34,848 nt of DNA from a virus (Duplodnaviria; Heunggongvirae; Uroviricota; Caudoviricetes): IMG/VR virus record IMGVR_UViG_2651869781_000011; one strand, 5' to 3'. Below the pieces are notes generated by a model that worked only from the letters and a program-made list of their open reading frames with translations, ran no database searches and was not told the origin of the DNA. This document shows, in pieces, positions 1-34,848 of this stretch. Position numbers and translations under genes: made by a program. Position 1 is the first letter of the stretch. Every line of letters begins with the position of its first letter.

Positions 1-528
1 CGGGCGCGGCGGCAGGTTACCCACCACTACCGAGGCCAGATACTGCGAGGTGGTTTTGCCCTTAATGGTGATGTCTTTTTCCGTCACCCAGCCACCGTTA
101 CGCTGTATCTGAACCAGCAGGCGAACTTCCGACGGATTCCGGTCCCCCTTTGAAGTGGTTTCCACCAGTGCCTGCACACCGAAGGTAAAGCGCAGACGGT
201 CGATGTTTGCCGACGTGATGGTCCGGGTGAGCGGATTGTCATATTTTAATTCTGCACCGATAACGGTTTCTGAACCGGAGGATTCAAATCCCTCCGGCGG
301 TGTCTGCTCCTGCTCACCTGCCCGGAACACCACCGTGACACCGGAGATATTGGTATTCCCCTCACTGTCCAGCACTGGCGTACTGTTCAGCAGCACACTT
401 TTTAATCCATCCACCGGACCTTCAATCGGCCCTTCACTGATGGCGTCTATCACGCTCAGCAGCTGGGATGATTTCAGGTTGTCCTTCGCTTCGCGCGGGG
501 TATGCCCCTTACTGCTGCCTTTACCCAT
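1..528 (-). CDS. J: Tail tip / host-specificity protein J, N-terminal part (gene continues past window start)
   Basis: Minus-strand ATG at 528-526; translation MGKGSSKGHTPREAKDNLKS... matches the lambda gpJ N-terminus as recalled; lies directly after I. The + ORF 155-544 in the track is antisense to it. Confidence 0.85.
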   Translation of the reverse strand, partial: MGKGSSKGHTPREAKDNLKSSQLLSVIDAISEGPIEGPVDGLKSVLLNSTPVLDSEGNTNISGVTVVFRAGEQEQTPPEGFESSGSETVIGAELKYDNPLTRTITSANIDRLRFTFGVQALVETTSKGDRNPSEVRLLVQIQRNGGWVTEKDITIKGKTTSQYLASVVVGNLPPRP

Positions 529-588
529 TCCTCACGCTCCATAAACGACAAAACCGCCCTGAGGCGGTTTCACATAAAACGTTTTTCA

Positions 589-1236
589 TCAACGACCAAT
601 CACCACAACCTGACCACCGTCCCCCTCGTCTGCCGTGCTAATCTCCTGAGAGACAACACGTGACCCCACGCGCATTTCACCGTACAGAACAGGCAGAACA
701 TTGCCCTGGGCAACCATGTTGTCCAGTGACGAGAAATACGTGTTCTGCTTACCGTTATCCGTTGTTTGTGTGCGGGGAGTTCTGGGTTTAGGGGCCAGCA
801 TCTGGGCCACACCGCCCAGGATCATACTGGCTCCTGCCGCATACATGCCCGATAAAGCCGCAGCACCCAGCCAGCCTGCAGGGTTCCACCATGCCACCGC
901 AATCAGCGCCGCCCCCAGCACAGCCTGAAATACGCCGCCACTTTTAGCCCCCGCCAGGCGCGGTACGATGTGGATCACGGCACCATTTGCCAGCGGCTCA
1001 TTAAGACGGGCAGATAATTCGGTTTCACCTGCATCACGCCCGGCAATGCGCACCTGATACCAGCCGTCATTCAGTTTCTGACGAAACGCCGGGACCTGTG
1101 TGGACAGTGCGCGGATGGCTTCAGCCCCCGTTTTCACACGAAGGTCGATGCGGCGGCCAAATCGTTGCAAATCCCCGTAAAGGCAGATGCGTGCCATGCC
1201 CGGTGACGCCAGAGGGAGTGTGTGCGTCGCTGCCAT
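589..1236 (-). CDS. I: Tail assembly protein I
   Basis: 215 aa, MAATHTLPLASPGMARICLYGDLQRFGRR..., lambda gpI-like; start overlaps the 3' end of K as in lambda. Confidence 0.9.
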   Translation of the reverse strand: MAATHTLPLASPGMARICLYGDLQRFGRRIDLRVKTGAEAIRALSTQVPAFRQKLNDGWYQVRIAGRDAGETELSARLNEPLANGAVIHIVPRLAGAKSGGVFQAVLGAALIAVAWWNPAGWLGAAALSGMYAAGASMILGGVAQMLAPKPRTPRTQTTDNGKQNTYFSSLDNMVAQGNVLPVLYGEMRVGSRVVSQEISTADEGDGGQVVVIGR

Positions 1237-1877
1237 TTGTCGGTATACCTCTCTCGTTTGCTCAGTTGTTCAGGAATATGGTGCAACAGCTCGCCGTCGC
1301 CGCAGTAAATGGCGGCATGATTCGGCACCGATGAACCAAAACAGCACAGCAGCACATCGCCCGGTTGTGCTGATGACAACGGCACCTGATACAGCCCTGT
1401 GGCCTCCAGATTATCCAAATAGAGATTCTGACCGTGACGCCACCAGTCATCCTCGCGATGAAAATCCGGCATCTCAATCCCCGCCAGATGATAAGCATCC
1501 CGGAACAGCGTGTAACAGTCCGTCACCCCGTGCTCAAAGCGCCGCCCGGTGAGATGCGGCACACAGCGGAACTTATGAATCGTCACCCGGCAGACCAGCC
1601 ACCACGGCAAATCACTCTGCACCTGCAGCCGCCGGTCGGCCTCACTCAGCCAGGGCAGACCACCGGGGTGGCTGTGGACCAGCGCCACAATCTCACCGTG
1701 CAGTGTTGCCTGCAGCCAGTCCTCCGGCGACATCCGGAAATAATCTTCCGGCTCACCGGAGATATTCACGCAGGGGAAATATCTTTTCCCCTCCGACGTT
1801 CTCACCACGAAGCCGCACGACTCCGCTGGCGCACATCGCCGGGCGTGCGCCAGAATCGCTGATTCTGTCTCTGTCAT
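1134..1877 (-). CDS. K: Tail assembly protein K (NlpC/P60 + JAB/MPN-like)
   Basis: 247 aa, ...HSHPGGLPWLSEADRR... and ...TDCYTLFRDAYH... motifs; sits between L and I. Confidence 0.9.
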   Translation of the reverse strand: MTETESAILAHARRCAPAESCGFVVRTSEGKRYFPCVNISGEPEDYFRMSPEDWLQATLHGEIVALVHSHPGGLPWLSEADRRLQVQSDLPWWLVCRVTIHKFRCVPHLTGRRFEHGVTDCYTLFRDAYHLAGIEMPDFHREDDWWRHGQNLYLDNLEATGLYQVPLSSAQPGDVLLCCFGSSVPNHAAIYCGDGELLHHIPEQLSKRERYTDKWQRRTHSLWRHRAWHASAFTGICNDLAAASTFV

Positions 1878-1882
1878 GGGAT

Positions 1883-2581
1883 TTACTGCGAAAGTTTGTT
1901 AATGGAAAGGAAGCCGCCAAAGTTGCCGACGTTATTGCGAAACTTACAGCCACTCAGGCATTTGCTACATTTATCCTTCGTGATATCGGACGTCGGCTGG
2001 TCATATTCATCCGCGACAGCCGGACCATTATAACCGCACTCATCACCGCGATAGGTCCAGGTGCAGGTGTTGGCCAGCATGATGCGCCCCGGAAAAACGG
2101 CACCATCCGTTTCCGTCGGTGTGGACAACACAAAGGAGGCACTGACCGCGCTCAGTTCGCTGCACTGCTCGACGCGCCAGCGGCTGATCACCTCCTGCTC
2201 CGGATCGGCGTCACTGTTTCCGTTGACGAAGTTCACCGCATCCAGAAAACGGGCGTAAACCTTACGCCTGACCACCGTTCCGCCGACCAGACTTTGCAGG
2301 TCTTCCGCCATCCCGGTGACCATGCCGTGCAGGTTAGAGACTTTCAGCGTTGGTCTTGCACTGGCTCCTTTGCCGTTCATCTCAAAGCCGCTTCCCTGAA
2401 TAGGGTACGCCTGATACTGTCGCCCCTGCCAGGTGACTGACTCACCTTTTTCGTTCTGCTCATTACAGAAAAAATAACGCTCGCCACCGACTTCGGTCAG
2501 ATCGACTTCCCAGAGCACGACCAGTGCGGATTGCTCCGCTTTTGTACACTCATTCAGTGTTTCCTGTTGTATATCCTGCAT
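1883..2581 (-). CDS. L: Minor tail protein L
   Basis: 232 aa with Cys-rich C-terminus (CSKCLSGCKF), lambda gpL-like; conserved M-L-K-I-J order. Confidence 0.9.
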   Translation of the reverse strand: MQDIQQETLNECTKAEQSALVVLWEVDLTEVGGERYFFCNEQNEKGESVTWQGRQYQAYPIQGSGFEMNGKGASARPTLKVSNLHGMVTGMAEDLQSLVGGTVVRRKVYARFLDAVNFVNGNSDADPEQEVISRWRVEQCSELSAVSASFVLSTPTETDGAVFPGRIMLANTCTWTYRGDECGYNGPAVADEYDQPTSDITKDKCSKCLSGCKFRNNVGNFGGFLSINKLSQ

Positions 2582-2880
2582 CAGTGAGTGACCTCTTCAA
2601 AGGTACAGTTAAAATCGGTATACATGGCATTATCCGAAGTACTCCACTCCCTGCAGACAACCCTGACAGTCCTGTTGTGTTTTGGCGGGCGCCACAAAAA
2701 AGCACGCATCCCGGCATGACGGGATAAAAAACTGTCCAGCGCGGCGCGGGAATATTCATCTGTGACACGAAATACCGGTTTAAAGGTTTTCAGATCCGCA
2801 TTCAGACCACCAGCCCGTCGCTGTTCATATCCGTCACCGAACTTTACTGTAATAACAGATGGCTTTCGTGTCGTCTCCAT
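2581..2880 (-). CDS. M: Minor tail protein M
   Basis: Track ORF 2581-2967; likely true start is ATG at 2880 (METTRKP...), preceded by a GAGGGG SD and lying after the H stop; lambda gpM-like (FGDGYEQR). Confidence 0.85.
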   Translation of the reverse strand: METTRKPSVITVKFGDGYEQRRAGGLNADLKTFKPVFRVTDEYSRAALDSFLSRHAGMRAFLWRPPKHNRTVRVVCREWSTSDNAMYTDFNCTFEEVTH

Positions 2881-2914
2881 CCCCTCGCGGGGGATCCAGT
2901 TAAAAACTTCAGAC

Positions 2915-5900
2915 TCAGGCACTGCATAATCCTCCGTCCCGACGTGATGACTGCATAATTGACACAACCCTGCTGTCGATCAGATCCACCAGCCCCCTGG
3001 CTGACTGCGTATCTATCTCGCCATTGCTCCCTTTATTCTGAATACTGATGTGATACACGGGAGAATAAACAAATCCCCCGCCACCATTCACATTGCCAAT
3101 GGCTCTGACCCCAAGAGAGCCGTCCGCTGCCCGTGTCAGTGGCATGATAGCTTCAGGCCCGGCCTCGCCCATCAGCCCGGCACCTTTCGCAAAAGCAAAA
3201 TACGTCGGTGTATCCACAATAGTGTTACTGTAAGCACTCAGATTTGCCGATGTGTAAACACCACCTTTTGCGTTTGCCACTGCACCGGAAAGCCAGTCGC
3301 CGACCGTACCAAGCCATCCTCCGGCACCGGACATGCTTTTGGAAAGTGACTTCAGCCCGTTAACGATGGCAGCGTTCATCAGAATTTTTGAAACTTCCTG
3401 GAGGATTGAACTCCCCCAGTTTCGCCAGTCCACAACATTTCCGGCCAGTGCATCGGAAATATTTGATACCAGCCCGTCCATAGTGGAAACGACAGCATCT
3501 GCCGCCTGCGAAGCATAATCGGTGGCACTGTCTGCCCAGTTCGTCAGCCCCTCCTGGAGTCCGGCATTCCAGTCACTGCGTAAAGCATCAGCCTTTGCAT
3601 AATAATCCTGCTGATCGCTGAGACGCTCTTCCAGATATTTTTCATTCAGCGATTTTTCCTGTTTCCACAGGGCTTCTTCAATTTCTCCGGCCTGATACTG
3701 TCTCAGCAGCTCGTTATTTTTCTGCTCAAACGCCTGCCGGATACTCCACATTTCCTGGAGTCGTTCACGCATCCGTGAGCCTTCACCATATCCCAGCAAC
3801 TGCGCGTCGTCAGATGCCCGGGCGCTGGCATTACTGTCCGCCAGACTGCTTTCATACGCGGCAAGCTGCTCACGAATCTTTTTCTGGTCGATGAGTGCCG
3901 CATTCTGTAAAAGCGTTTTTTTCTGCGCTTCTGACAGGGTTGATAATTCGCCCTGACTGACCTGATATTTCATCTTAGCCAGTTCAGTATTCTGACCTGC
4001 CAGTGCTATTTGTTCTTTTTGCTGTTTAATCAGCCGTTTATAAATATCTTCTGTTTTTTCCGCTTCGGTCTTTTTATGCGCTTTGGGTTTATTTGCCTGG
4101 TTATTTCGCCAGGCATCCAGTGAGTTATTGATATAATTCTGTCTGGCTGTCTGATACGCCTCTCCCACAAAGCCGAGATCATCCGCAGCATAACCCAGTC
4201 GGGCACGCTCACGGGCTTCCCCCTTCAGGCGGGACAGAGCCAGTTCGCGCTCGCTGTTATTCAGTGCGGTCTGCTGTTTATCATCCAGGGTGGCCTGTGG
4301 CAGCCGTAACGGTACATTCACCAGCCCCTGTCGCTGCTGAAGTAATTCATTACCAAGCCCGAGAAGGCGATTAAACTCGGTATGCTGCCCATTCATGATC
4401 AACATGGACTGATACGCTTTGTTTTGTTCCGCTGCCTGTTGACGGATCAACGCAACCCGCCGCTCCTCCAGCCCGGCAAGCACATCCTGAATGGATTGCG
4501 CTTTGTCCTGCATTTGAGTGAGGCGAGACTGTTCAACTGCCAGTTGATTTGTTGCTTCTGCAAGCCCTTCTGTGACAGTTTTTACCGACGTCATGTGGTT
4601 AATCATAAAACCGTTATCGGTTGTCCAGCCCGGGTTTGCCAGCACATACTGATAGCCAGCAATTTTTTCCTGTAAGGATTTAATCTTACTTTTCTGCTCG
4701 TCAATTAACCTGTTCTGCTCCTTCAGTGCCTGCCGCGTCTTTTCCTCATTATCTGACGCTTCAGGAAGCGACATTGCCGACGTTTTCTGGCGAATTTCGT
4801 CGATTGTTGCGGCATACTGGCGTGCAGATTCTCTGGCCTGCTCCTGATTCTGATACATCGTGTACCAGGCCGTCGCCCCCAGCATGACGAGTCCCGGCAC
4901 ACCACCAACCAACCCCAGCGCACCACTTAACAGACGACTCCCCACTGACGTGACAGTATTCAGCGTTGTCTGTGCCGCTGTTCTGGCCGTAATATTACGG
5001 GTAAGTGACGCCTGGGCAGCTGTCAGCTTCGCTTCTGCGGCTGCCTGCCTTTCGGTACCGCGAGCAGCAACAACCGCCTGTTGCGCACGATAAACCGCCG
5101 CACGCGCCCTGGCGGTTGCTATCTGTGTCCCCCGAAGTTGCGCTTCAGCAAGAGCCACTTCGTTTCTGGCTGCAGTAATTAATCCGGCAGTTGCAGATCC
5201 AGCAGAAGACGCCATATTGCCAAAATATCGGGCTACCCCGACGGCAACCAGAGCACCGGCAGCGGTTGCCACAGTGTCAATATTGCCTGCAATACCATTC
5301 AGCACACCAGAGAGCGTCTTTGTCACTCCGCTTGCCTCGTTCGCACCACCAACCCAGGCCATAAAGGCGTTTTCAACTTTGGTTGCAGAGGATGAAACCG
5401 TATCAGGCATTGCTGCATATTCATCACGCAACGCCCCAAGCTGACTAATCAGTGCAGGGACAACCTTATCGGCAGTCAGTTTTCCGTTATCCGCCATGGC
5501 CTTCAGATCCTTACGGGCAACACCCATTCCCGCAGCCAGCGCACGAATAACACGATCGCCGTTCTCATTCACAGAGTTAAATTCTTCACCACGCAGCACT
5601 CCCTGCGCCAGTGCCTGACTGAACTGCGTGATCACCGAACTGGCTTCTGCTGTACTGGCACCGGATAATTTCAGGCCCGTGGAGATCGCCTCGGTGACTT
5701 TCAGTACCTCCTCAGAACTGTAGCCATACTCCCGCATGGAAGCTGCAGAACGGGCAAAAAGGCTGGCGTTATCAGAAAACGCCGTCCCCGTTCTCTGGCT
5801 GATCGCCATTAATTCACGCTGTGATGCCTGAAAATCATCACTGGACTGTGAGGCCTGCTTCAGACGGGCATTTACTGAATTCCACTCATCGGCGAGAGAA

Positions 5901-6160
5901 ATAAGATGACCGGTAGCAAAAGCCCCGGCAAATGCCCCCGCCATATTCAGTGCCGAAGATTTAGCTGTATTTATCTGATCCGTCACTTCTGCCAGTGCAC
6001 GCCGCATTTCACGGGATGCAGCAGCGGACTGCCGGCCTCCGTTCTGCATGGTACGGTAGTAATCCTGCCCCATACGCGAAGCCCGGGAGATCTCTGACTG
6101 GAATGACCGGGAATTTGCCGAGATTTTAATAATCAGTTCACGTAATGTCGCCACACTCAT
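2915..6160 (-). CDS. H: Tail tape measure protein H
   Basis: 1081 aa, Ala/Gln-rich coiled-coil-like sequence with Gly-rich C-terminal part; located between T and M. Confidence 0.9.
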   Translation of the reverse strand: MSVATLRELIIKISANSRSFQSEISRASRMGQDYYRTMQNGGRQSAAASREMRRALAEVTDQINTAKSSALNMAGAFAGAFATGHLISLADEWNSVNARLKQASQSSDDFQASQRELMAISQRTGTAFSDNASLFARSAASMREYGYSSEEVLKVTEAISTGLKLSGASTAEASSVITQFSQALAQGVLRGEEFNSVNENGDRVIRALAAGMGVARKDLKAMADNGKLTADKVVPALISQLGALRDEYAAMPDTVSSSATKVENAFMAWVGGANEASGVTKTLSGVLNGIAGNIDTVATAAGALVAVGVARYFGNMASSAGSATAGLITAARNEVALAEAQLRGTQIATARARAAVYRAQQAVVAARGTERQAAAEAKLTAAQASLTRNITARTAAQTTLNTVTSVGSRLLSGALGLVGGVPGLVMLGATAWYTMYQNQEQARESARQYAATIDEIRQKTSAMSLPEASDNEEKTRQALKEQNRLIDEQKSKIKSLQEKIAGYQYVLANPGWTTDNGFMINHMTSVKTVTEGLAEATNQLAVEQSRLTQMQDKAQSIQDVLAGLEERRVALIRQQAAEQNKAYQSMLIMNGQHTEFNRLLGLGNELLQQRQGLVNVPLRLPQATLDDKQQTALNNSERELALSRLKGEARERARLGYAADDLGFVGEAYQTARQNYINNSLDAWRNNQANKPKAHKKTEAEKTEDIYKRLIKQQKEQIALAGQNTELAKMKYQVSQGELSTLSEAQKKTLLQNAALIDQKKIREQLAAYESSLADSNASARASDDAQLLGYGEGSRMRERLQEMWSIRQAFEQKNNELLRQYQAGEIEEALWKQEKSLNEKYLEERLSDQQDYYAKADALRSDWNAGLQEGLTNWADSATDYASQAADAVVSTMDGLVSNISDALAGNVVDWRNWGSSILQEVSKILMNAAIVNGLKSLSKSMSGAGGWLGTVGDWLSGAVANAKGGVYTSANLSAYSNTIVDTPTYFAFAKGAGLMGEAGPEAIMPLTRAADGSLGVRAIGNVNGGGGFVYSPVYHISIQNKGSNGEIDTQSARGLVDLIDSRVVSIMQSSRRDGGLCSA

Positions 6161-6199: not shown

Positions 6200-6511
6200 T
6201 CACTGAGACACTATTAAAAGCGCGTTTTCCAGTCCGGCAAATGGATCTGAGGCGCCTTCTGTCTGCTCTTGTTCCCACTGAAGAAGCGCATCATTCAGTG
6301 GTACTTTGACACCCTGCGCACCGTAAACCGCAGAAACTATCTGGGCAGCCCGGATATCAGCCCGCTCATCACCCAGCGGGCTGAACCTGTCAAATTCTGC
6401 CCACATCATGATTTCTGATGCGGACATTTCCCGGCGTAACTCTGACAATGTGCGCCCCATCCTGAGCGCCAGCATCATCAGAAAACGCATCCCCGGAAGC
6501 GCTACTTTTTT
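6200..6511 (-). CDS. T: T portion of the G-T tail assembly chaperone, reached by -1 frameshift from G
   Basis: ORF 6200-6490 is in the -1 frame relative to G; slippery heptamer A_AAA_AAG (minus strand, 6511-6505) ends the G frame just before its TAG. Confidence 0.75.
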   Translation of the reverse strand, partial: KKVALPGMRFLMMLALRMGRTLSELRREMSASEIMMWAEFDRFSPLGDERADIRAAQIVSAVYGAQGVKVPLNDALLQWEQEQTEGASDPFAGLENALLIVSQ

Positions 6512-6888
6512 TTAACCTCGCCGGCATCACTGATCAGTTCCAGAGACTGCCGAAGAAGCCGCGCATGCACCGGGCCATACACGGCAATCACCTGTTCACG
6601 ATCATCCTCTGAAAATACAGGTTGCAGTCCGGTATCACACAGAACATCAATGAACAGTTCAACATCTGCCTCCAGATTTCGGCGGGCGCGCTCCGCAACG
6701 GATAACGGTGTCTCATCATCTTTTGCTTTAACGATCTCCTGCCAGCGCAACCAGGCTTCTGCAGAAGGTTCCCGTAATACAACCGTTGCCCCTTCCCATT
6801 CAGGCACATCAACGGTTTTATGGCGAAACCCCGACATCGTTGCCAGTGCCAGATTACGGATATTTTTAGTCATCACATCTATCCTCAT
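6502..6888 (-). CDS. G: Tail assembly chaperone G
   Basis: 128 aa ending ...GEVKKK* on the slippery site; position between major tail gene and T. Confidence 0.85.
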   Translation of the reverse strand: MRIDVMTKNIRNLALATMSGFRHKTVDVPEWEGATVVLREPSAEAWLRWQEIVKAKDDETPLSVAERARRNLEADVELFIDVLCDTGLQPVFSEDDREQVIAVYGPVHARLLRQSLELISDAGEVKKK

Positions 6889-7592
6889 TAACTGACGGTA
6901 ACAGTGCAGGAAGTGGAGGTCACCTTGCTAACCGGGCTTGCTGAATCAGAAATCTCGCAGGTATACGCACCGGCATCACCGGATACTGCGGATGCCTTAC
7001 TGAACGTTGCCGCCGTCTGTCCGGAAACAGGAGAACCACCTTTCTTCCAGACATAAGAATAAGGCGGCACACCACCGGCAGCCTCAACCACCATTTCGAG
7101 TTTCGCTCCGGCAGAAACCTGCAGCGTGCTGTTTAAATCGACCTTCACTTTCAGTGGCTCTGTCGTCAGTACAGGTTTACCTTTCAGGCGCAGGGAAAAC
7201 GTTGCAGCCACAACTCCATTGGTTCCTGCAGACCAGGTATGCTGACGCACCTCTGCCATAAAGGTAAATCCGTTGCCTGACGGAAAAATAACTTTAAAGC
7301 CATACGTGGTGTCATTGTCATAGGCACTGCGCAACGCGTTCTGGGCAGCATTCAGATAAAAGTTGCCTGACATGGAAATCTCTGACGCGGCACCAAGACC
7401 GTTAATATTTTCCTGCTCAACAGAACACAGCGTGGTGACATCAATATCCTGTTTCTGCCCGGCGGTAAACTGAACCTCTTTAATCGTACAGCTCAGTTCA
7501 AGAAAACTGGCAGAACTCAGCGTTTCTGCCGTTACCGGTGCAGACGAGATCATGACTTTGGTCTGCTGAGAACGTTCAAAATTAGAGGACAT
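6888..7592 (-). CDS. V: Major tail protein with C-terminal Ig-like domain
   Basis: 234 aa; SD AGGAG upstream of ATG 7592; C-terminal Ig/Big_2-like segment (...GVPPYSYVWKKGG...GAYTCEISD...). Confidence 0.8.
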   Translation of the reverse strand: MSSNFERSQQTKVMISSAPVTAETLSSASFLELSCTIKEVQFTAGQKQDIDVTTLCSVEQENINGLGAASEISMSGNFYLNAAQNALRSAYDNDTTYGFKVIFPSGNGFTFMAEVRQHTWSAGTNGVVAATFSLRLKGKPVLTTEPLKVKVDLNSTLQVSAGAKLEMVVEAAGGVPPYSYVWKKGGSPVSGQTAATFSKASAVSGDAGAYTCEISDSASPVSKVTSTSCTVTVS

Positions 7593-7605
7593 ACTCGTCT
7601 CCTGA

Positions 7606-7632
7606 AAATAAAAAAACCCGCCAGCGGCGGGT
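7606..7632 (-). terminator. Hairpin plus T-run immediately upstream of the major tail gene
   Basis: CCCGCC-agc-GGCGGG stem followed on the minus strand by TTTTTTATTTT. Confidence 0.4.
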
Positions 7633-7652
7633 GGGTAAAATCATTAACGACC

Positions 7653-7997
7653 TCAGGCTATTACCTGAAATTCAAGCGTGGCTCTGCTCAGACGGGAATC
7701 AGGATCATAACCCTGCGTTTTAGAAATAACGGAGGGTGCCAGTTGCCTTACCGCATCAAGCGCCTGCTCACGGATATCATCTGCGTCATCAGGTACTGTC
7801 GCCCAGACATCGATCTGCACGGTAATTCTGGATTCAGCCTGACCATCAAGCACATCAGATGCCGTGTCAGACACCACAGAAAACACCAGCCACGGCGGAG
7901 ATACCGCAGGCTTTCCCTCCGTCAGCAGGACCACATAAGGATAAACCTGTCCTCCGGCCAGTTGAGACAGCAGGGAATACAGTGTGGCCTCTCTCAT
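7653..7997 (-). CDS. Tail terminator / tail completion protein (DUF3168-like)
   Basis: 114 aa directly upstream of the major tail gene; family assignment from recall. Confidence 0.55.
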   Translation of the reverse strand: MREATLYSLLSQLAGGQVYPYVVLLTEGKPAVSPPWLVFSVVSDTASDVLDGQAESRITVQIDVWATVPDDADDIREQALDAVRQLAPSVISKTQGYDPDSRLSRATLEFQVIA

Positions 7998-8443
7998 TTA
8001 CTTAAGACCTCATCAATAGCCTGATTCATTCGCTGTATGGCAATCTGTGCTGCCAGTTCCTCTGTCGTATCGAAAGCCGGGCGAATGAACGGATGCGCGG
8101 GCATGTTTATCGTTCCCAGCTCCACAAAGCGCCAGTAAAACGCATTTCGGGGATCACTGGCTTTCATGCTGTTATCACTGTTTCCGGTTCGCAGGCTCCG
8201 TCCGCGAATGTGGACACCCGAGATAATTTCCCCCCGACGCTTTGAACGCTGAGTGAGAACAACCACATTTTTTTTCAGTTTTCCGGTTCGCTCCGGCGCA
8301 CGTTCAACAACAGCATCCCGCATAACTTCAGCACCGGCACGGGTGGCATCGCGCAGTACCTTATTATTTTCTGCCCTGCTGAGCGTCTCCAGATCCCGTG
8401 CAATATCCGCCAGACCTGAAAAATCAAGACTGAAATCCATCAC
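7994..8443 (-). CDS. HK97 gp10-family tail component
   Basis: 149 aa; position and sequence character consistent with HK97 gp10-like proteins. Confidence 0.6.
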   Translation of the reverse strand: MMDFSLDFSGLADIARDLETLSRAENNKVLRDATRAGAEVMRDAVVERAPERTGKLKKNVVVLTQRSKRRGEIISGVHIRGRSLRTGNSDNSMKASDPRNAFYWRFVELGTINMPAHPFIRPAFDTTEELAAQIAIQRMNQAIDEVLSK

Positions 8444-8778: not shown

Positions 8779-8786
8779 GAATCCTC

Positions 8787-9092: not shown

Positions 9093-9103
9093 TTGGGCAA
9101 CCT

Positions 9104-9292
9104 CTATGAATGCTGTTTTTTAGACTTATCAGCCCCCCGCGCAACAGGTGTTCTCTTATCAGAGACAATCCCAGCTGCAGTGGCAATTTCGCGTACCCGT
9201 TCGGGTAATTCTTTATCTTCATACTCACCGGCCCGAATAATCTCAACACGCATACCGTCCGGTGACCATTTCAGATCTTGTTTCAGGATCAT
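9104..9292 (-). CDS. Hypothetical small protein (62 aa)
   Basis: ATG with AGGTGA SD; lies between major capsid and connector genes. Confidence 0.4.
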   Translation of the reverse strand: MILKQDLKWSPDGMRVEIIRAGEYEDKELPERVREIATAAGIVSDKRTPVARGADKSKKQHS

Positions 9293-20629: not shown

Positions 20630-20630
20630 G

Positions 20631-25731: not shown

Positions 25732-25753
25732 TAAATTTTTCTCCCGGTAAAAA

Positions 25754-26500: not shown

Positions 26501-26506
26501 AGTTCG

Positions 26507-27472
26507 TTACCCCCTGAACCCCGGCGGAATTTCGGTGTCCGGTTCAGAAATGTGATTCACACAACGCTGTACAGGCGAACGCCCCAGACGGATAACCAGC
26601 TCATCCCATTTTTCGCGAAGCTTTGACGGGCTCATGACGTTTTTTACCCAGAATGGATCCCGCTGTACCCGACCAAACATTTCGCAAATTTGCCTGTGAG
26701 TTCTGCCATCCAGCATCCGCATTGTGCGCACGTCATTGGCCCACACGGTCCAGTTTGGTTCTTTCGGTCGCATGATCTCGCCATCATCGCTGGCAGCCTG
26801 CTCGTAAAGACTCACGATTCGTCCCCAGATCCACTGCGCACAAGCTAAATCTTCCTGGCTACCCCACTGGCGTTTTTTCGCACTGAACACAACCGCGTCA
26901 GGGTGTCGGGTTAAAAAATCCTGTTCAGCCGTCTGCATGTCCGGTTGCGAAGCTTCCGGACGAGAAGTGTTTTTATTCTCTGTAGTAATCTCTGTTGTAT
27001 TCTCTGTAAGATCATCGGGCCATTTTGACCCGATGACATTGGGTCGTTTTGAACCAATGGAGCGTGCCATTTTGACCTCTTCCATCGTGTCATTTTGACC
27101 TGATGGAGCGGCGCATTTTGACCTGATGGATTCGCTCACTTTGCCACCATCTAAAAGCTCACTCTCGTAATTAATCGTGTAAAAATTAGTCATGTCACGC
27201 TTTGATTTGTTGAGCTTTTCGCAACGCAAAAGCCCCAGCGTTTTCAGACTTGCAAATGCGCGTTTTAACGTTGACTCTGACCAGAACGGGAACTGTTCCA
27301 GCCATTGTTCTGTTGTGTTATAAATCCAGCGAACCCCGTTACATTCCATGCCGGAATTAGTATCTCTCAACCAGTAATGCAGCTGCTGCAGTACAATGGC
27401 TTCATTCAGGCCAATTTTCATCGCCAGCTGCGTGTTAATAACCAGTGGGCGTTCAGCAAAAAGAAGACTCAT
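26507..27472 (-). CDS. Replication initiator (lambda O-like), ori iterons inside the gene
   Basis: Track ORF to 27526 begins at TTG; ATGs at 27514 and 27472; N-terminal DNA-binding-like region, acidic repeat linker, C-terminal domain; contains the iteron array. Confidence 0.75.
   Translation of the reverse strand: MSLLFAERPLVINTQLAMKIGLNEAIVLQQLHYWLRDTNSGMECNGVRWIYNTTEQWLEQFPFWSESTLKRAFASLKTLGLLRCEKLNKSKRDMTNFYTINYESELLDGGKVSESIRSKCAAPSGQNDTMEEVKMARSIGSKRPNVIGSKWPDDLTENTTEITTENKNTSRPEASQPDMQTAEQDFLTRHPDAVVFSAKKRQWGSQEDLACAQWIWGRIVSLYEQAASDDGEIMRPKEPNWTVWANDVRTMRMLDGRTHRQICEMFGRVQRDPFWVKNVMSPSKLREKWDELVIRLGRSPVQRCVNHISEPDTEIPPGFRG
27021..27147. repeat. Origin iterons: CATTTTGACC-type repeats at ~23-bp spacing
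   Basis: Four exact CATTTTGACC copies (27021, 27068, 27091, 27114) plus two degenerate ones; three 12-bp TCTCTGT-containing repeats just upstream (26974-27009); AT-richer stretch follows. Confidence 0.7.
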
Positions 27473-28185: not shown

Positions 28186-28262
28186 CACCCCTCCAAAGTT
28201 GAGTTTTCTCAATAGTAATCACTCAAGGAATCTCAAGTCAAGGGTTATTAAGATATCTAAAT
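28186..28262. promoter_or_regulatory. Divergent promoter/operator region between dicC-like and dicA-like genes
   Basis: TTGAGTTTTCTCA at 28199-28211, CTCAAG direct repeats at 28222-28237; candidate minus-strand promoter TTGACT-N18-TACTAT; no SD before the dicA ATG. Confidence 0.5.
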
Positions 28263-28670
28263 ATGAACGAGAAAACTTTAGGTCAACGAATTAGAGAAAG
28301 ACGCAAACAGGTTGGTTTAAGTCAAAACGATTTAAGCAAAGCCGCTGGCGTATCTGGCTCATCAATTTCACTATGGGAAAGCGACCATACAGCCCCGCGC
28401 GGGCAAAATTTGCATCGCCTGGCTGAGGTATTGCAATGTTCACCAACTTGGATACTGTTTGGTGACGAGGATAAAACACCAGATCCACCAGTTGCACTCA
28501 ACAGCGCCTTAGACTTATCGGAAGATGAGTTGGAGATGTTGCGATTGTATCGCGCACTTCCAAAATCAGAGCAGCAAGCACAAATCAGCGAACTCCGTGC
28601 CCGCGTTGAGAATTTTAATCGCCTATTCACCGAGCTACTAGAAGCTCGCAAACGTAACAAACATCAGTAA
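28263..28670 (+). CDS. dicA: XRE-family repressor (DicA-like, CI analogue)
   Basis: 135 aa; HTH LSQNDLSKAAGVSGSSISLWE; ...VLQCSPTWILFGDEDK... matches DicA as recalled. Confidence 0.8.
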   Translation: MNEKTLGQRIRERRKQVGLSQNDLSKAAGVSGSSISLWESDHTAPRGQNLHRLAEVLQCSPTWILFGDEDKTPDPPVALNSALDLSEDELEMLRLYRALPKSEQQAQISELRARVENFNRLFTELLEARKRNKHQ

Positions 28671-28731
28671 CCCCCTTCACAAATTTTAAAGCCTTACATT
28701 TCAATGTATTGGCTTTATTTTGCATTAATTA

Positions 28732-28783
28732 TTGAGTTTTCTCATTAAAAACACTTGACCAATATTCATGAGAAAACTAAATT
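28732..28783 (+). promoter_or_regulatory. Candidate repressor-controlled promoter for the ydfA-dicF-dicB operon
   Basis: TTGACC-N17-TAAATT (28755-28783) flanked by TTGAGTTTTCTCA (28732-28744, identical to the 28199 site) and an inverted near-copy at 28769-28780. Confidence 0.45.
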
Positions 28784-28860: not shown

Positions 28861-29016
28861 ATGGATACTATCGATCTTGGCAACAACGAATCTCTGGTGT
28901 ACGGCGTGTTTCCCAACCAGGACGGCACATTCACCGCGATGACGTATACCAAAAGAAAAACGTTTAAAACCGAAAATGGTGCCCGTCGCTGGCTGGAAAG
29001 AAACTCAGGTGAGTGA
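28861..29016 (+). CDS. ydfA: YdfA-like small protein (51 aa)
   Basis: ATG 28861 with GAGG SD; same size and position as Qin ydfA (recall). Confidence 0.55.
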   Translation: MDTIDLGNNESLVYGVFPNQDGTFTAMTYTKRKTFKTENGARRWLERNSGE

Positions 29017-29017
29017 T

Positions 29018-29146
29018 ATGGATTTCGACACAATCATGGAAAAGGCTTACGAAGAATACTTCGAAGGCCTTGCCGAAGGCGAAGAAGCTCTCAGCTTCAG
29101 TGAGTTTAAACAGGCGCTTTCCAGCTCGGCAAAATCTAACGGCTGA
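29018..29146 (+). CDS. ydfB: YdfB-like small acidic protein (42 aa)
   Basis: MDFDTIMEKAYEEYFEGLAEGEEALSFSEFKQALSSSAKSNG; starts 1 nt after the previous stop; below the ORF-track cutoff. Confidence 0.5.
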   Translation: MDFDTIMEKAYEEYFEGLAEGEEALSFSEFKQALSSSAKSNG

Positions 29147-29175
29147 TAAGCGAAGCAGCACCGCGAGGAATCAGT

Positions 29176-29394
29176 ATGCAGAAACGAGAACCCGTCATCA
29201 TCGCGCCAGACTATACCGATGATGAACTTTATGAGTGGATGCACCAGAAAATTAATGCAGCGCAGGATCTGAAATGGGCCAATGAAGCCAGGGCTAAGCA
29301 GGCTGAAAATCTGTCCGCTCTGGAGCAGGATATCACCAATCTGGAAAAAGCAGCGGCATTAAGCATTGCCAGAATGATTACATACCCGCGTTAA
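29176..29394 (+). CDS. ydfC: YdfC-like protein (72 aa)
   Basis: 72 aa; same size and position as Qin ydfC (recall). Confidence 0.5.
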   Translation: MQKREPVIIAPDYTDDELYEWMHQKINAAQDLKWANEARAKQAENLSALEQDITNLEKAAALSIARMITYPR

Positions 29395-29416
29395 TAGCTA
29401 ACCAACGAGGCTAATA

Positions 29417-29824
29417 ATGGAATTTAAAGATTTACCAAAAGAAATCCAGACAATTGCTGCAACGACTCTCGGTGATAGTCTGGTGAAAATTGACCCGGCA
29501 TACACCAAAAAAGAAACCATCGATAATATGGTTCGTAATGTGCGCAATGCTTTTTCTGGGCTATATGGTTCTGATAATCAAAAGCAGGAAAGCGATGTTA
29601 ATAAACGGGTAATTTCTGTTTGCGTGAATGGCCATGTTCTTTCATCAATCAAAACAGAAACGGCGACAGTCTTCGATTGCCTTTGCATTGTACAGAGCCT
29701 TGTTGATGCCCTGTTTCGTTCAGTGAATTTAGAAAATGATGCAAATCTGCGAGGGCGCACAATAGCACATCCATATGCACATACTTTAGGCTCTGTGGAT
29801 ATCAAAGATCCCACAAATCTTTAA
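29417..29824 (+). CDS. Hypothetical protein (135 aa), AT-rich
   Basis: ATG 29417 with GAGG SD at 6-nt spacing; no recognisable motif. Confidence 0.5.
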   Translation: MEFKDLPKEIQTIAATTLGDSLVKIDPAYTKKETIDNMVRNVRNAFSGLYGSDNQKQESDVNKRVISVCVNGHVLSSIKTETATVFDCLCIVQSLVDALFRSVNLENDANLRGRTIAHPYAHTLGSVDIKDPTNL

Positions 29825-30035
29825 TGAAATAGTTAACGCGAATTGTACTTGCTCTTTCAGTTGCTTTCAGAATACGCGTTGAAACTGCTGGCGGTAATTT
29901 GGTATTCCATTTATTAAAATCATGCCCGGGAAAGTACTCTTCGAAAATACTTTTAACTGCAGACTCGCCTATTGAAATGCTGCTTACCATGCGATTTTGA
30001 TAAAGGCATTTAGCAATAAGAGTTGATTTTAACAT
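29802..30035 (-). CDS. Hypothetical protein (77 aa), convergent with the 135-aa ORF
   Basis: ATG 30035 with strong AGGAGG SD; 3' end overlaps the 135-aa ORF by 23 bp; AT-rich. Confidence 0.5.
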   Translation of the reverse strand: MLKSTLIAKCLYQNRMVSSISIGESAVKSIFEEYFPGHDFNKWNTKLPPAVSTRILKATERASTIRVNYFIKDLWDL

Positions 30036-30368
30036 TCACCCTCCTGAGGGTTGGTAATTAAGGAGTTCTCCACGGGTGAAATGGAGTGCGTGCGCCGGAC
30101 ACGGGTGAACATCCGGCACTGACAGTTTACTGAAAGGATATTTCTCTGAAAAGTCAGAGCATAACGCGAAAGCGCACGGCGAGGTTGCTGGTTCATAGAT
30201 AGCCTGTCGTTAAATTTTCGTCGACCGTGCGCTTCCGGTTGTGGCACTCCGCGAAATGGCGCGGCGGTAAGTATGGCGGGGTTATTCCTTCCCCCGTTGA
30301 GGACACCGGGTTGTCAGGTTGACCATACGCTTAAGTGACAACCCCGCTGCAACGCCCTCTGTTATCAA

Positions 30369-30425
30369 TTTTCTGTGACGTTTGGCGGCATCTGTTTGCC
30401 CATGAACTGATGTCCGCCCTTTTTA
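30369..30425 (+). ncRNA. dicF: DicF-like small RNA with intrinsic terminator
   Basis: TTTTCTGTGACGTTTGGCGG...CCGCCCTTTTT resembles Qin DicF as recalled; GGCGGCATC/GATGTCCGCC stem then T5; immediately upstream of dicB. Confidence 0.65.
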
Positions 30426-30593
30426 AAGTGAATTTTGTGATGCGGTGAATGCGGCTAAGCGCACGCGGAACAGTTAAAGCTAAAAACAGTGTTATGGGTG
30501 GATTCTCTGTATCCGGCGTTAATTGTTAACTGGTTAACGTCACCTGGAGGCACCAGGCACCGCATCACAAAACTCATTGTTGAGGACGCGATA

Positions 30594-30782
30594 ATGAAAA
30601 CGTTATTACCAAACGTTAATACGTCTGAAGGTTGTTTTGAAATTGGTGTCACTATCAGCAATCAGATATTTACTGAAGATGCCATTAATAAAAGAAAACA
30701 CGAACAGGAACTGCTAAATAAAATATGCATTGTTTCGATGCTGGCCCGTTTACGTCTGATGCAAACAGGATGCAGGCAATGA
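30594..30782 (+). CDS. dicB: Cell division inhibitor DicB
   Basis: 62 aa MKTLLPNVNTSEGCFEIGVTISN...ICIVSMLARLRLMQTGCRQ; GAGGA SD; matches DicB as recalled. Confidence 0.85.
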   Translation: MKTLLPNVNTSEGCFEIGVTISNQIFTEDAINKRKHEQELLNKICIVSMLARLRLMQTGCRQ

Positions 30783-30969
30783 ATACGGCATTTGTACTCG
30801 TTCTGACTGTTTTTTTGTTTCTGGTGAACCGATTGATCTTGTTATTGACATACATGACTCAATGGAAGAATGCATGACTGCCGCGGCAGAGCAAAAAATT
30901 CCCGGGAACTGTTATCCTGTCGACAAAATTATTCGCATGAACAATAACGAAATCCCGGCAGGCCTTTAA
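30779..30969 (+). pseudogene. ydfD: ydfD-like gene interrupted by a frameshift at a T7 tract
   Basis: ATG overlaps the dicB stop; frame stops after 32 codons; one extra T in the 30810-30816 run would give a continuous 63-codon ORF. Confidence 0.5.
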
Positions 30970-33542: not shown

Positions 33543-33608
33543 TGTTCAACCCTGATCGCCGTCTCCGAATTATATTGGCGGCGGTCATGCTGTAAGGCAC
33601 GTGACCAC

Positions 33609-33860
33609 ATGTACGAATTAACTCTATCGCCAGCAGAGATTCAAGAGATCACGAAATACGAGCGATACACAAAACAGCAACACCAGTTAAGGCTGCACGG
33701 TATCCCATTTGTAATCGGTCCTAAAAACGAACCAATAGTTCTTCGCAGGGATATTCCACACGGACTGACTACGATGCCAAAAGCACCTGAACTGGTTTCC
33801 GCTGAACCCGATTTTGAGGCGCTGAACAATGGGAAGACCAAGAAAAAACAAAAAAGATAA
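33609..33860 (+). CDS. xis: Excisionase (lambda Xis-like)
   Basis: 83 aa MYELTLSPAEIQEI... with basic tail; 3' end overlaps the integrase start. Confidence 0.55.
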   Translation: MYELTLSPAEIQEITKYERYTKQQHQLRLHGIPFVIGPKNEPIVLRRDIPHGLTTMPKAPELVSAEPDFEALNNGKTKKKQKR

Positions 33861-34848
33861 TGCACTACCACCGCGTGTTAGATCGAATGGTTACAGTTAC
33901 GTGTGGAAACCCGAAGGAAGCACAAGAACTATAGGGCTCGGAAGAGTACGGGAAACCAGCGTAGCTAAAGTCTGGCAAAATTATGAACTGGAAAAAGCAA
34001 AACTCCACAACATAATGACCGTCGCTAAATTATGGCACATGTTTATGGACTCCCCTGCATTTACAGAACTGGCACCCCGAACCCAAAAAGATTATCGACA
34101 ACATCAGAGGGCGTTGCTGGCGGTATTCGGTAAAGTGCTTGCTGATAATGTAAAAATTGAGCAAGTAAGAATTTTCATGGATAAGCGGGGACTTGAGAGC
34201 AAGACCCAGGCAAACCATGAGCTGGCAAGCCTGAGTCGCGTATACGGATGGGGATATGAGCGTGGGTATGTGAAAAATAATCCATGCAAAGGCGTCAGAA
34301 AATTCACGCTTAAAGCCCGCACTGTTTACATAACCGATGAACAGTATGCGGCGATATACGCGGAAGCAATTCCACAGTTACGCATTGCAATGGAGATTTC
34401 CTATCTTTGTGCGGCAAGGCTCGGTGATGTTCTCGAGCTGAAATGGCAGGATATTATGGATAAAGGGATCTACATTGAGCAAAACAAAACAGGCACCAAA
34501 CAAATCAAGGAATGGTCTCCGCGATTACGTACGGCGATCCAGTTAGCCCGAAATGTATCTTCCGGCATATGCGAGTATGTGATCAGCACAACCAAAGGCG
34601 GGAAAGTCATCGCTAAAACGCTGAACAACTGGTGGAATCAGGCTAAACGCGCAGCCGAGCAAAAAGCAGGCGTTCCGTTCGGATGTAATTTTCATGACAT
34701 AAAAGCCAAAGGGATTTCAGATTATGAAGGCAGCAGCCGCGACAAACAAATTTTCAGTGGGCATAAAACAGAAAACCAGGTGTTGATTTATGATCGCAAA
34801 ACAAAAATCACCCCAACACTGGATTTGCCGCTTGTGGTCAGTAAGTAG
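33829..34848 (+). CDS. int: Tyrosine integrase (lambda Int family), complete
   Basis: 339 aa MGRPRKNKKDNALPPRVRSNGYSYVW...; C-terminal ...GHKTENQVLIYDRK with catalytic Tyr; stop at the last base of the window. Confidence 0.9.
   Translation: MGRPRKNKKDNALPPRVRSNGYSYVWKPEGSTRTIGLGRVRETSVAKVWQNYELEKAKLHNIMTVAKLWHMFMDSPAFTELAPRTQKDYRQHQRALLAVFGKVLADNVKIEQVRIFMDKRGLESKTQANHELASLSRVYGWGYERGYVKNNPCKGVRKFTLKARTVYITDEQYAAIYAEAIPQLRIAMEISYLCAARLGDVLELKWQDIMDKGIYIEQNKTGTKQIKEWSPRLRTAIQLARNVSSGICEYVISTTKGGKVIAKTLNNWWNQAKRAAEQKAGVPFGCNFHDIKAKGISDYEGSSRDKQIFSGHKTENQVLIYDRKTKITPTLDLPLVVSK

Follow-up and report, generated by a model that had tools for sequence, protein, structure and literature searches.

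A mosaic lambdoid prophage of Escherichia coli with a dic-type immunity module, HK97-family head genes and a lambda-like tail tip

Integration, immunity and replication genes

The window, the whole stretch of 34,848 nucleotides analysed here, very probably represents about four-fifths of a lambdoid temperate E. coli prophage, from the int end to the start of the tail tip gene J. Read from right to left, its gene order is int, xis, a dicBF-type early-left operon, a DicA/DicC switch, an O gene with five iterons, a DnaC-like loader, hok/sok, Rem, Q, two tRNA genes, a lysis cassette, an HK97-family head, the tail and the start of J. Outside the window lie the remainder of J, the genes for the tail fibres and the second att site. 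The rightmost features are as follows (coordinates, strand, identity):

33829-34848, plus: tyrosine integrase gene int (339 aa, PF00589), its stop codon on the last base of the window
33609-33860, plus: excisionase-like xis (DUF4224, PF13986)
31062-33542, plus: YdfE-type exonuclease with a C-terminal DEDDh domain (PF16473)
28861..30969, plus: dicBF-type early-left operon (tblastn against Qin)
30779-30969, plus: ydfD, frameshifted by a 1-nt deletion
30594-30782, plus: dicB (DicB 89% aa identical to Qin)
30370-30419, plus: dicF (E 8e-7; 41 bits, below the Rfam cut-off of 48 bits)
29417-29824, plus: orf135, in the dicBF-type operon

As in lambdoid phages generally, int and xis lie at one end (33609-34848) next to an att site, here beyond the window. 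Two annotated prophages located beside yccA encode full-length integrases with the same amino acid sequence as that of the window (100% identity); the integrase of phage Evi is 99% identical, whereas identity to intQ and lambda Int is only 24%. In these two prophages and in Evi the 3′ end of a tRNA-Ser gene starts about 180 bp past the int stop, and homology between attP and the prophage junction ends right after the CCA end of the tRNA. Because the integrase is identical to that of prophages adjoining yccA, we infer that att is the 3′ end of this tRNA-Ser gene, about 180 bp beyond the window, where the integrase would recombine. The earlier note had the integrase stop at the last base and att just past the right edge; the former is correct and the latter holds in the relatives.

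All members of the operon ydfABC-dicF-dicB-ydfD are present in order under a leftward promoter, dicF as a sub-threshold match and ydfD as a frameshifted gene. A 635-bp segment of the operon, comprising orf135 and its antisense ORF, has no counterpart in Qin but is present in Evi and in the CAU16175 prophage. The ydfD frameshift shows some decay; we know of no requirement for ydfD in phage growth. Leftward transcription would cover ydfABC, dicF, dicB, the exonuclease gene, xis and int.

Further to the left lie the immunity, replication and accessory genes:

28200..28780, plus: immunity core (HTH only by Pfam; operators from sequence)
28733-28744 and 28769-28780: two leftward-promoter operators, flanking a PL-like -35 element TTGACC at 28755
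28263-28670, plus: DicA-like repressor (135 aa, HTH_3, without S24 domain)
28200-28211: operator between dicC and dicA
27958-28185, minus: DicC, Cro analogue (PF14549, P22_Cro)
27453-27974, minus: CII-like/YdaT-family protein (phrog_163, PF06254)
25754..27472, minus: replication module, loader plus initiator
26507-27472, minus: O-like initiator (phrog_391, E 1e-95)
27013-27128: five 23-bp iterons of the origin inside O, with AT-rich 12-mers at 26974-27009
25754-26500, minus: DnaC-like helicase loader (PF01695, E 3e-20; phrog_50, E 9e-84)
23739..25782, minus: nin-like accessory genes (Pfam and PHROG matches)
25042-25782, minus: DUF1627
24618-25091, minus: DUF977/Ren-like
23739-24404, minus: DUF551
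23447-23617, minus: sok/mok leader region (Rfam sok, 102.9 bits, E 1.7e-22)
23294-23449, minus: hokD (HokD 100% aa identical to K-12, Qin)
21394..23128, minus: RosmerTA-type toxin-antitoxin/defence pair (PADLOC)
22478-23128, minus: RmrT, toxin (PADLOC, E 4.6e-25)
21394-22500, minus: RmrA, antitoxin (PADLOC, E 6.2e-105; HTH_3 and Peptidase_M78)
20976..21236, minus: Rem homologue, candidate antirepressor (86 aa, 70% aa identical to Qin Rem)
20631-20909, minus: 92-aa ORF
19574-20629, minus: DUF968/YdfU-like protein (PF06147; 81% aa identical to YdfU)
19193-19573, minus: RusA (PF05866)
18375-19196, minus: Q antiterminator (PF03589)

The initiator gene carries its own iteron origin and is followed by the helicase loader gene, the lambdoid arrangement. 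All exact matches to CATTTTGACC in the window (4/4) fall within one 103-bp iteron stretch, and the O gene of phage mEp460_ev081, whose product is 95% identical, carries an identical set of five at matching positions. O would be expected to bind these iterons inside its own gene. RmrT and the adjacent RmrA, which combines an HTH with an ImmA/M78 peptidase, are encoded by genes of low GC content (0.42-0.43) that overlap by 23 bp; the RosmerTA family is described in PMC10440598. Q lies upstream of a lysis/head/tail late operon, as in lambdoid phages, with all late genes co-oriented and terminator-like hairpins at 18293-18274 and 17718-17703. Rightward transcription is predicted to run through dicC, the CII-like gene, O, the loader gene, the accessory genes and Q.

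Lysis, packaging, head and tail genes

The late region comprises the following features:

17925..18078, minus: tRNA-Gly(TCC) and tRNA-Thr(TGT), between Q and the holin gene (ARAGORN; Rfam, 65 and 74 bits)
15705..17633, minus: lysis cassette
17418-17633, minus: class II holin (holin PHROGs)
17063-17413, minus: DUF1327 protein (PF07041)
16466-16999, minus: SAR endolysin (PF00959), N-terminus AAVLALIAAGASA, a hydrophobic signal-anchor-like stretch
15705-16169, minus: Rz (68% aa identical to lambda Rz)
15749-15949, minus: embedded Rz1 lipoprotein (lipobox VVGC)
12626..15362, minus: DNA packaging genes
15012-15362, minus: HNH endonuclease (PF01844; 38% aa identical to HK97 HNH)
14383-14865, minus: TerS, P27 family (PF05119)
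12626-14383, minus: TerL (PF20441/PF03354)
9343..12614, minus: head genes
12432-12614, minus: YmfR-like 60-aa protein
11191-12432, minus: portal (PF04860)
10563-11249, minus: S78 prohead protease (PF04586)
9343-10548, minus: major capsid protein with N-terminal delta domain (PF05065, E 1e-79, domain from aa 115)
6888..9292, minus: tail/joining block (Pfam matches)
9104-9292, minus: 62-aa ORF
8787-9092, minus: head-tail connector
8440-8778, minus: head closure protein (63% aa identical to HK97)
7994-8443, minus: gp10-like protein (79% to HK97)
7653-7997, minus: tail completion protein (50% to HK97)
6888-7592, minus: major tail protein V (71% to HK97)
6200..6888, minus: tail assembly chaperones G (6502-6888) and G-T (PF06222)
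2915..6160, minus: tape measure protein (1081 aa; PF06120 HK97_TLTM, TMP_3, Tape_meas_lam_C)
589..2922, minus: tail tip assembly block (I, K, L, M)
2581-2922, minus: M (Phage_min_tail; 40% aa identical to lambda)
1883-2581, minus: L (Phage_tail_L; 94% to lambda)
1134-1877, minus: K (JAB and NlpC/P60; 86% to lambda)
589-1236, minus: I (Lambda_tail_I; 79% to lambda)
1..528, minus: start of the tail tip gene J, truncated by the window edge after 176 codons

The window encodes a portal, an S78 protease and a PF05065 capsid protein with a delta domain, and it lacks any separate gene for a scaffold or decoration protein; the protease gene and the capsid gene that follows it are 14 bp apart. An HNH gene adjoins the terminase genes in the same arrangement as in HK97, where it lies at the right end of the genome. 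The order HNH-TerS-TerL-portal-protease-capsid is thus shared with HK97. The capsid, protease and portal proteins, however, are 26, 36 and 31% identical to those of HK97, compared with 96-99.5% to those of phage phi467, and no window DNA was at least 80% identical to HK97, so that the element does not belong to the same genus. In HK97 gp5 the crosslinking residues are Lys169, Asn356 and Glu363. In a weak alignment (22% identity) of the two capsid proteins, Ala stands opposite Lys169 and a gap opposite Asn356.

The joining and shaft genes are closer to HK97, at about 50-79% identity, except that the connector and the 62-aa ORF had no HK97 match. All genes between 6888 and 9292 are full-length and 96-100% identical to prophage or phage relatives. 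A slippery heptamer (A AAA AAG) lies at the end of G, with the T frame continuing in -1, and G/G-T are 64% identical to HK97 gp13/14. The tape measure protein is 55% identical to HK97 gp16 and 99% identical to its counterparts in phi467 and Evi. L, K and I resemble lambda (79-94%), while lambda head, shaft, immunity and recombination genes are absent from the window. The J fragment, which we take to be lambda-like, corresponds to the start of gpJ in CAU16175, and relatives carry J, lom, stf and tfa past the point of J codon 176. Together, these matches suggest a siphovirus-type tail whose shaft resembles that of HK97 and whose tip resembles that of lambda.

In late transcription, antitermination by Q would carry transcription past the two tRNA genes, through the lysis genes (holin, endolysin and spanins) and on through the HNH, terminase, HK97-family head and siphovirus tail genes.

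Much of the gene content proposed in the earlier note is real: the element is a mosaic lambdoid prophage, and the O-like initiator with iterons, the DnaC-like loader, Q and a full lysis cassette (holin, SAR endolysin, Rz/Rz1) were all recovered. Other proposals stood in part. The "HK97-type" head is of the HK97 family but distant from HK97 itself; the "lambda-type" tail is so for L, K and I, but M is only 40% identical and V, G, T, H and the joining genes are HK97-like; and of the "complete" head and tail modules, the head genes are full-length but the tail is cut within J.

Immunity specificity and comparison with Qin

The DicA-like and DicC genes are divergent and 77 bp apart, and three TGAGAAAACTCA-type sites (TGAG-N4-CT(C/A)A) are present, one between dicC and dicA and two at the leftward promoter. 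This is the divergent repressor/Cro pair with repeated operators of lambdoid phages. An XRE-type repressor of only about 135 aa that lacks an S24 domain, a P22-Cro-like DicC and, on the same element, a Rem homologue predicted to act on this repressor are the components of a Qin (dic)-type module. The class assignment made in the earlier note stood, but the specificity is not that of Qin. The repressor is 54-56% identical to Qin DicA (42% in the HTH part, 62% in the C-terminal half) and DicC about 70% identical to its Qin counterpart; Qin DNA alignment is absent over 28096-28789, which contains the dicC N-terminus, the operators and dicA; and the operators are of the TGAGAAAACTCA type as opposed to the TTAG...CTAA type in Qin. 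Because repressor and operators differ from those of Qin, the element is probably heteroimmune to it. The immunity core is 95-96% identical to that of mEp460_ev081 (repressor 96% aa, DicC 95%), with the same three operators.

During lysogeny the DicA-family repressor would bind the three operators. Since it lacks the self-cleaving S24 domain, RecA-stimulated self-cleavage should not be possible, and derepression would therefore follow another route, likely the Rem-type antirepressor encoded 7 kb away, spontaneous DicA/DicC flipping, or both. Rem lifts DicA repression (PMC10448788). In the window, rem has its own promoter-like site after a terminator; no LexA box was found upstream of it, and no trigger for its expression was identifiable.

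The two Rem alleles are 70% identical to each other, and the two DicA alleles 54%, with different operators. All four Rem/DicA combinations occur in nature, in Qin, mEp460_ev081, the window and a prophage in CP022664. Rem antirepressors may conceivably act across immunity types, although we consider this rather doubtful. If Rem docks on the more conserved C-terminal half of DicA, a dic-type prophage might induce other, heteroimmune dic-type prophages that share its cell, a situation similar to the cross-induction that has been reported among Gifsy prophages of Salmonella.

The cryptic K-12 prophage Qin has several features in common with the window: the dicBF layout, the divergent DicA/DicC switch and its three operators (one plus two), hokD, Rem and YdfU, a lysis gene pair of the S/R type and an exonuclease of the YdfE type. 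It differs in lacking replication, head and tail genes, in its own repressor specificity, Q, integrase and chromosomal site, and in carrying relBE, csp genes and pinQ, which the window lacks. An early-left match to Qin had been noted, and it is close for ydfA/B/C (96-99% aa), DicB and hokD, but ydfD is frameshifted. These likenesses, together with RrrQ (93% identical to the endolysin), YdfU (81%), the exonuclease and Rem (70%), could be read as those of an intact form of Qin, of the same lineage and differing only by Qin's deletions. Whole alignment contradicts this: just 16.5% of the window is covered by Qin DNA, a share that falls to 4.1% when at least 90% identity is required. DicA is 54% identical with different operators, Q is 40% identical to Qin YdfT, the integrase is 24% identical to intQ, and the related prophages adjoin yccA rather than lying in ydfJ. 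Moreover, mEp460_ev081 is closer to Qin, its Rem being 96% identical to Qin Rem and 71% to that of the window, and, in common with the annotation of Qin, it has genes for a serine recombinase and of the GnsB and Csp types. An intact Qin is thus extremely improbable, and the earlier view of a relative of Qin specifically is not upheld.

Mosaic make-up and intactness

Three sequenced phage genomes, those of phi467, Evi and mEp460_ev081, between them match about 80% of the window at 85% identity or higher. Window positions 1799-18200 are 97% identical in nucleotide sequence to phi467 (LN997803), an Stx2f-converting phage which shares the head, tail, packaging and holin genes (92-100% aa) and the tRNA-Thr/tRNA-Gly pair. 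In phi467 the interval from Q to the tRNAs contains stx2f; the corresponding interval of the window is only about 300 bp long and free of toxin genes. The early region, the endolysin and the integrase of phi467 are unrelated to those of the window. Evi (LR597642), a temperate phage from a faecal virome, matches the tail genes (96.6% nt), terminase (96.4%), ydfC-dicF stretch (98%) and exonuclease-xis-int (90%), and has an attP with the tRNA-Ser 3′ end; its portal, protease and capsid are another set (26-29% aa), and its repressor and replication genes are unrelated. mEp460_ev081 (LR597641), a functional, plaque-forming temperate coliphage from infant faeces, shares the immunity core, CII-like protein (91% aa), O and its iterons, dicB, a YdfE-type exonuclease, hok and rem. 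It differs in having a 1281-bp integrase gene, no annotated DnaC-like loader and no HK97-type head match found, its record annotating a major head protein gene of 1959 bp. According to PMC6969025, Evi and mEp460_ev081 are isolates of infectious temperate phages, and the latter has been cited as a live phage with dicAC, dicBF and rem (PMC10448788, 2023). The novelty implied by the earlier note was thus anticipated: the prophage is a routine addition to a well-known lambdoid group, its blocks already seen in isolated E. coli phages.

The exact module combination was found in none of 5,426 complete E. coli genomes, among which the best single genomic place covered 76% of a 24.8-kb query (window positions 10001-34848). 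The best-matching genome changes near 15363, 20930 and 28823, and the number of matching places per E. coli genome has a median of 4 and a maximum of 18. This pattern might arise if shared repeats had led an assembly to fuse pieces of at least two lambdoid prophages from a single genome. The switch points, however, sit at gene-module borders, as in natural lambdoid recombination; the gene order is normal, with no function duplicated or missing; and every junction type also occurs in other complete genomes. Such an artefact is very unlikely, and we consider the prophage probably a natural mosaic of modules circulating among E. coli prophages.

Disruption of essential genes elsewhere had been named as evidence against an intact element. 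All essential genes visible in the window are full-length and none is interrupted, so that the prophage is apparently intact within the window, intactness here meaning gene length, a measure to which inactivating point mutations that do not shorten a gene would be invisible. The J-distal end could be damaged. A cryptic prophage like Qin, forming no infectious particles through damage outside the window or inactivating substitutions, is therefore a less likely but serious alternative. The frameshifted ydfD and the position of the J side beyond the window are compatible with it, and in PS1Thumoskin9, the closest early-region relative, whose late region is a different one, the portal gene is frameshifted, indicating that prophages of this group decay. 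A productive element is nevertheless favoured by several observations. Truncation affects none of the essential genes in the window; the late genes equal their phi467 counterparts in length and are full-length relative to phi467, Evi or annotated prophages, at 92-100% aa identity (most at least 95%); and the immunity and origin motifs are kept exactly as in the functional phage mEp460_ev081.

Organization and module sources of the prophage

The window carries a single lambdoid prophage, oriented from the tail end to the integrase end, with a GC content of 0.52-0.57 in the structural genes and down to 0.42-0.43 at 21-23 kb.

Features of the prophage (coordinates, strand, identity and basis)
1 to about 19200, minus: late genes (ORF calls)
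17925-18078: tRNA genes Gly-TCC and Thr-TGT
19200-28200, minus: early-right genes (ORF calls)
20976-21236, minus: Rem homologue, 70% identical to Qin Rem
21394-23128, minus: RosmerTA pair, RmrT (216 aa) and RmrA (368 aa; HTH and M78 peptidase) (model matches)
26507-27472, minus: O-like initiator (phrog_391, E 1e-95)
28200 and 28733: putative operators TGAGTTTTCTCA (sequence inspection)
28263-34848, plus: repressor and early-left operon (ORF calls)
28769: putative operator TGAGAAAACTAA (sequence inspection)
30370-30419, plus: dicF (Rfam DicF, E 8e-7, 41 bits against a 48-bit cut-off)
30779-30969, plus: ydfD, with a frameshift from the loss of 1 nt in a T run near 30815
31062-33542, plus: 826-aa exonuclease (DEDDh 3′-5′ exonuclease domain at the C-terminus)
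33829-34848, plus: integrase (PF00589)

The integrase coordinates confirm that the gene stops at the final base of the window; upstream of it lie the exonuclease gene and a DUF4224 excisionase-like gene. An att site had been proposed just beyond this edge, and the proposal is supported, by homology only. About 240 bp of the integrase 3′ flank are conserved across the prophages of E. coli strains CAU16175 and PS1Thumoskin9 and the temperate phage Evi, and the conserved flank terminates in a tRNA-Ser 3′ segment of ~60 bases that spans the anticodon loop through CCA. Since this segment begins about 180 bp past the integrase stop in all three, it supports the att placement. Past the CCA, homology between phage and chromosome ends, and the chromosomal side leads into yccA.

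The earlier note had proposed that the element, if intact, would be an inducible relative of the cryptic K-12 prophage Qin. The share of the window that aligned to Qin DNA was 16.5%, or 4.1% when at least 90% identity was required, in blocks corresponding to rrrQ/ydfR/essQ, ydfU-rem, hokD, ydfX with the C-terminal part of dicC, ydfABC, and dicF-dicB-ydfD-ydfE. With DicA at 54% identity, Q at 40% and the integrase at 24%, a specific relationship was not upheld; as judged by these alignments, the link to Qin is modular.

Positions 1799-18200, including the tRNA pair, were 97% identical to the Stx2f-converting phage phi467. In phi467, stx2f lies in the Q-tRNA interval; the corresponding interval of the window (18079-18374) is only about 300 bp long and has no toxin genes, so the element is related to a Shiga-toxin phage but lacks the toxin. 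The tail, the terminase, the ydfC-dicF stretch and the exonuclease-xis-int segment were 90-98% identical to Evi, and the immunity core, a CII-like gene and O were 90% identical in nucleotides (91-96% in amino acids) to the coliphage mEp460_ev081 and to phage HannyBb. At an identity threshold of 85%, the combined coverage of the window by phi467, Evi and mEp460_ev081 is 80%. Among prophages, that of PS1Thumoskin9 was 100% identical over 20930-28830, with a different late region and a site adjoining yccA, and that of CAU16175, likewise beside yccA, was 99.6% identical over 28823-34848. The whole combination of modules occurred in none of 5,426 complete E. coli genomes. Searches for the exact tape measure protein and for exact 45-mers in species-representative genomes gave no match, and those with protein I and RmrT gave only relatives, either about 97% identical in nucleotides or differing in their neighbouring genes. 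Records named vB_Eco...R were excluded as evidence of function because one of them, ON470580, is incomplete and contains host genes as well.

Within the window the element looks intact, as no IS element and no truncated essential gene were seen there. This part of the original reading stands, together with the nearby att site; its novelty as a live Qin relative does not. The gene content listed in the earlier note was, with corrections, mostly confirmed. Evi and mEp460_ev081 were isolated when infant-gut coliphages were surveyed by culture; that study also describes the phi467-type structural module as frequent among E. coli prophages (PMC6969025). Given that frequency, and the 14,129 sequence-collection blocks in which the window's exact RmrT protein is indexed, the group is abundant and already described, and the window is a new mosaic within it. 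This mosaic combines late genes from a toxin-less Stx2f phage, the immunity region and origin from a temperate phage of the infant gut, and an integration module from a third phage. Its discovery value is small, and it is useful chiefly as a clean case of lambdoid modular exchange. It also reveals what is gone from Qin: the genes for replication, head and tail, and an unbroken copy of ydfE.

The dic-type switch and the early-left operon

The 135-aa repressor was 54% identical to Qin DicA overall, divided between 42% in the DNA-binding part and 62% from VLQCSPTW onward, and DicC was ~70% identical to its Qin counterpart. The region in which Qin DNA did not align (28096-28789) comprises the dicC N-terminus, the intergenic operators and dicA. 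Here the three putative DicA-like operators are of the TGAGAAAACTCA type, and those at 28733 and 28769 bracket a TTGACC -35 element; in Qin, by contrast, the equivalent sites hold TTAG...CTAA-type palindromes. The immunity layout is shared with Qin, almost certainly with a different specificity.

In Qin, DicA works with DicC as a bistable switch and lacks a site for RecA-dependent cleavage; its repression is lifted by the Rem antirepressor and, independently of Rem and RecA, by urea or heat (PMC10448788). A Pfam search of the window repressor found no S24 domain. The gene for the Rem homologue is preceded by a promoter-like site and, before it, a strong terminator. In Gifsy phages the antirepressor is under LexA control. 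A LexA-box scan of the window returned only two CTGT-N8-ACAG sites, both within coding sequence and neither upstream of rem, so that comparable SOS control is unsupported. Induction would best be ascribed to Rem, to flipping of the DicA/DicC switch, or to both.

An HTH-M78 protein encoded nearby was considered as an ImmA-like protease that would act on the repressor during induction. This candidate was rejected: RmrA models matched the protein (E 1e-105), and its gene forms a pair with that of RmrT, so a RosmerTA cassette is the better explanation. The cassette is low in GC and lies between hok and rem. In eight of the eight places shown, RmrT was flanked by hok on one side and by Rem, DUF968, RusA and Q on the other, in dic-type prophages.

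All four combinations of Rem and DicA alleles were found.

Combinations of Rem and DicA alleles
Qin: Rem Qin-type; DicA Qin-type
mEp460_ev081: Rem Qin-type; DicA window-type
Window: Rem window-type (20976-21236); DicA window-type (28263-28670)
CP022664 prophage: the window's exact Rem; DicA 99% Qin-type, with Qin-type operators

The alleles reassort freely, with the dic-type switch existing in at least two apparent specificities, and the distribution suggests that Rem is not paired with the DNA-binding specificity of the repressor. Such reassortment would be expected if Rem binds the conserved C-terminal half of DicA, in which case dic-type prophages could cross-induce. For research on DicA, DicB, DicF and Rem, the source strain would offer an additional natural host with the module in what is probably a live phage.

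The earlier note matched the immunity and early-left region to that of Qin. The match held for ydfABC, dicF, dicB and hokD, and failed over the unaligned immunity core; ydfD is present but frameshifted. YdfA, YdfB and YdfC were 96-99% identical to their Qin counterparts, dicB was 89% identical, and HokD was 100% identical to K-12 HokD, with a full sok/mok leader (Rfam, 102.9 bits). Two differences set dicF apart from the K-12 copy, the loss of a single G from the 5′ single-stranded region and an altered hairpin loop; the variant folds as a strong terminator hairpin (-17.3 kcal/mol, z-score -3.9). The ydfD reading frame, which in Qin encodes a lysis protein, shifts after about 12 codons, and its counterpart is likewise annotated by PGAP as frameshifted in two related prophages. 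The operon also includes a 135-aa ORF and an antisense ORF, neither of which was found in Qin. Separately, the dicF-dicB spacer (30431-30571, plus strand) gave a sub-threshold match to the Salmonella sRNA family STnc100 (Rfam, 38.7 bits against a 47-bit cut-off, E 3.6e-6).

The exonuclease is a full-length homologue of ydfE (66% amino acid identity over the first 256 residues), which in Qin is a pseudogene truncated by IS2. Its assignment as RecE (exonuclease VIII) was rejected, as the RecE model matched the central region only, far under cut-off; the DEDDh C-terminal domain also opposes a RecE-type nuclease.

Replication and late genes

The proposed O-like initiator with iterons was correct: the O gene contains five 23-bp repeats (27013-27128), each internally palindromic and centred on GGTCAAAATG, and a 103-bp stretch of this array contains every exact copy of the 10-mer core that the window has, four in total. 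Three AT-rich 12-mers follow the iterons. The plaque-forming phage mEp460_ev081 shares all five repeats, identically placed in an O gene 95% identical to that of the window. The gene after O encodes a DnaC/IstB-type ATPase (PF01695, E 3e-20; phrog_50, E 9e-84), in agreement with the suggested DnaC-like loader.

Downstream of Q (PF03589) come a class II holin, a DUF1327 protein, a lysozyme with a hydrophobic, anchor-like N-terminal stretch, and Rz with an embedded, lipobox-bearing Rz1, all of the expected lysis proteins and Q being full-length. The packaging and head genes run HNH endonuclease, TerS, TerL, portal, S78 protease and PF05065 capsid protein, the domain of the last beginning at residue 115. 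The tail genes comprise connector proteins, the major tail protein, G and G-T with the slippery site A AAA AAG, the tape measure, M, L, K, I and a J fragment. All expected late functions are represented, and each gene is full-length except J, of which the window holds the first 176 codons; complete head and tail modules were accordingly found for the head, with the tail cut within J. The late proteins were 92-100% identical (most at least 95%) to counterparts in phi467, Evi or annotated prophages.

The label of HK97-type head and lambda-type tail required revision. The head shares the architecture and Pfam families of HK97, yet its proteins are only 26-36% identical to those of HK97. The capsid alignment was too weak for the gp5 crosslink residues to be used. 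Proteins of the tail shaft and the joining region match HK97 at 50-79% identity and nothing in lambda. Close similarity to lambda is confined to L, K and I (79-94%), M being at 40%, and the J fragment presumably resembles the N-terminus of lambda J. The label that fits is "HK97-like head and shaft with a lambda-like tip".

Between the chaperone gene T and the tape measure gene, the window has just 40 bp (6160-6200), where its close relatives L011-L015 hold a 113-aa zinc-ribbon gene (about 4693-5034). The least familiar part of the window, 15364-16455 on the minus strand, was at most 89% identical to anything in the 5,426 complete genomes. It contains a 104-aa ORF (phrog_4827), Rz/Rz1 and a roughly 300-bp endolysin-Rz spacer with a small hydrophobic ORF, and its genes were all assigned to known phage families.
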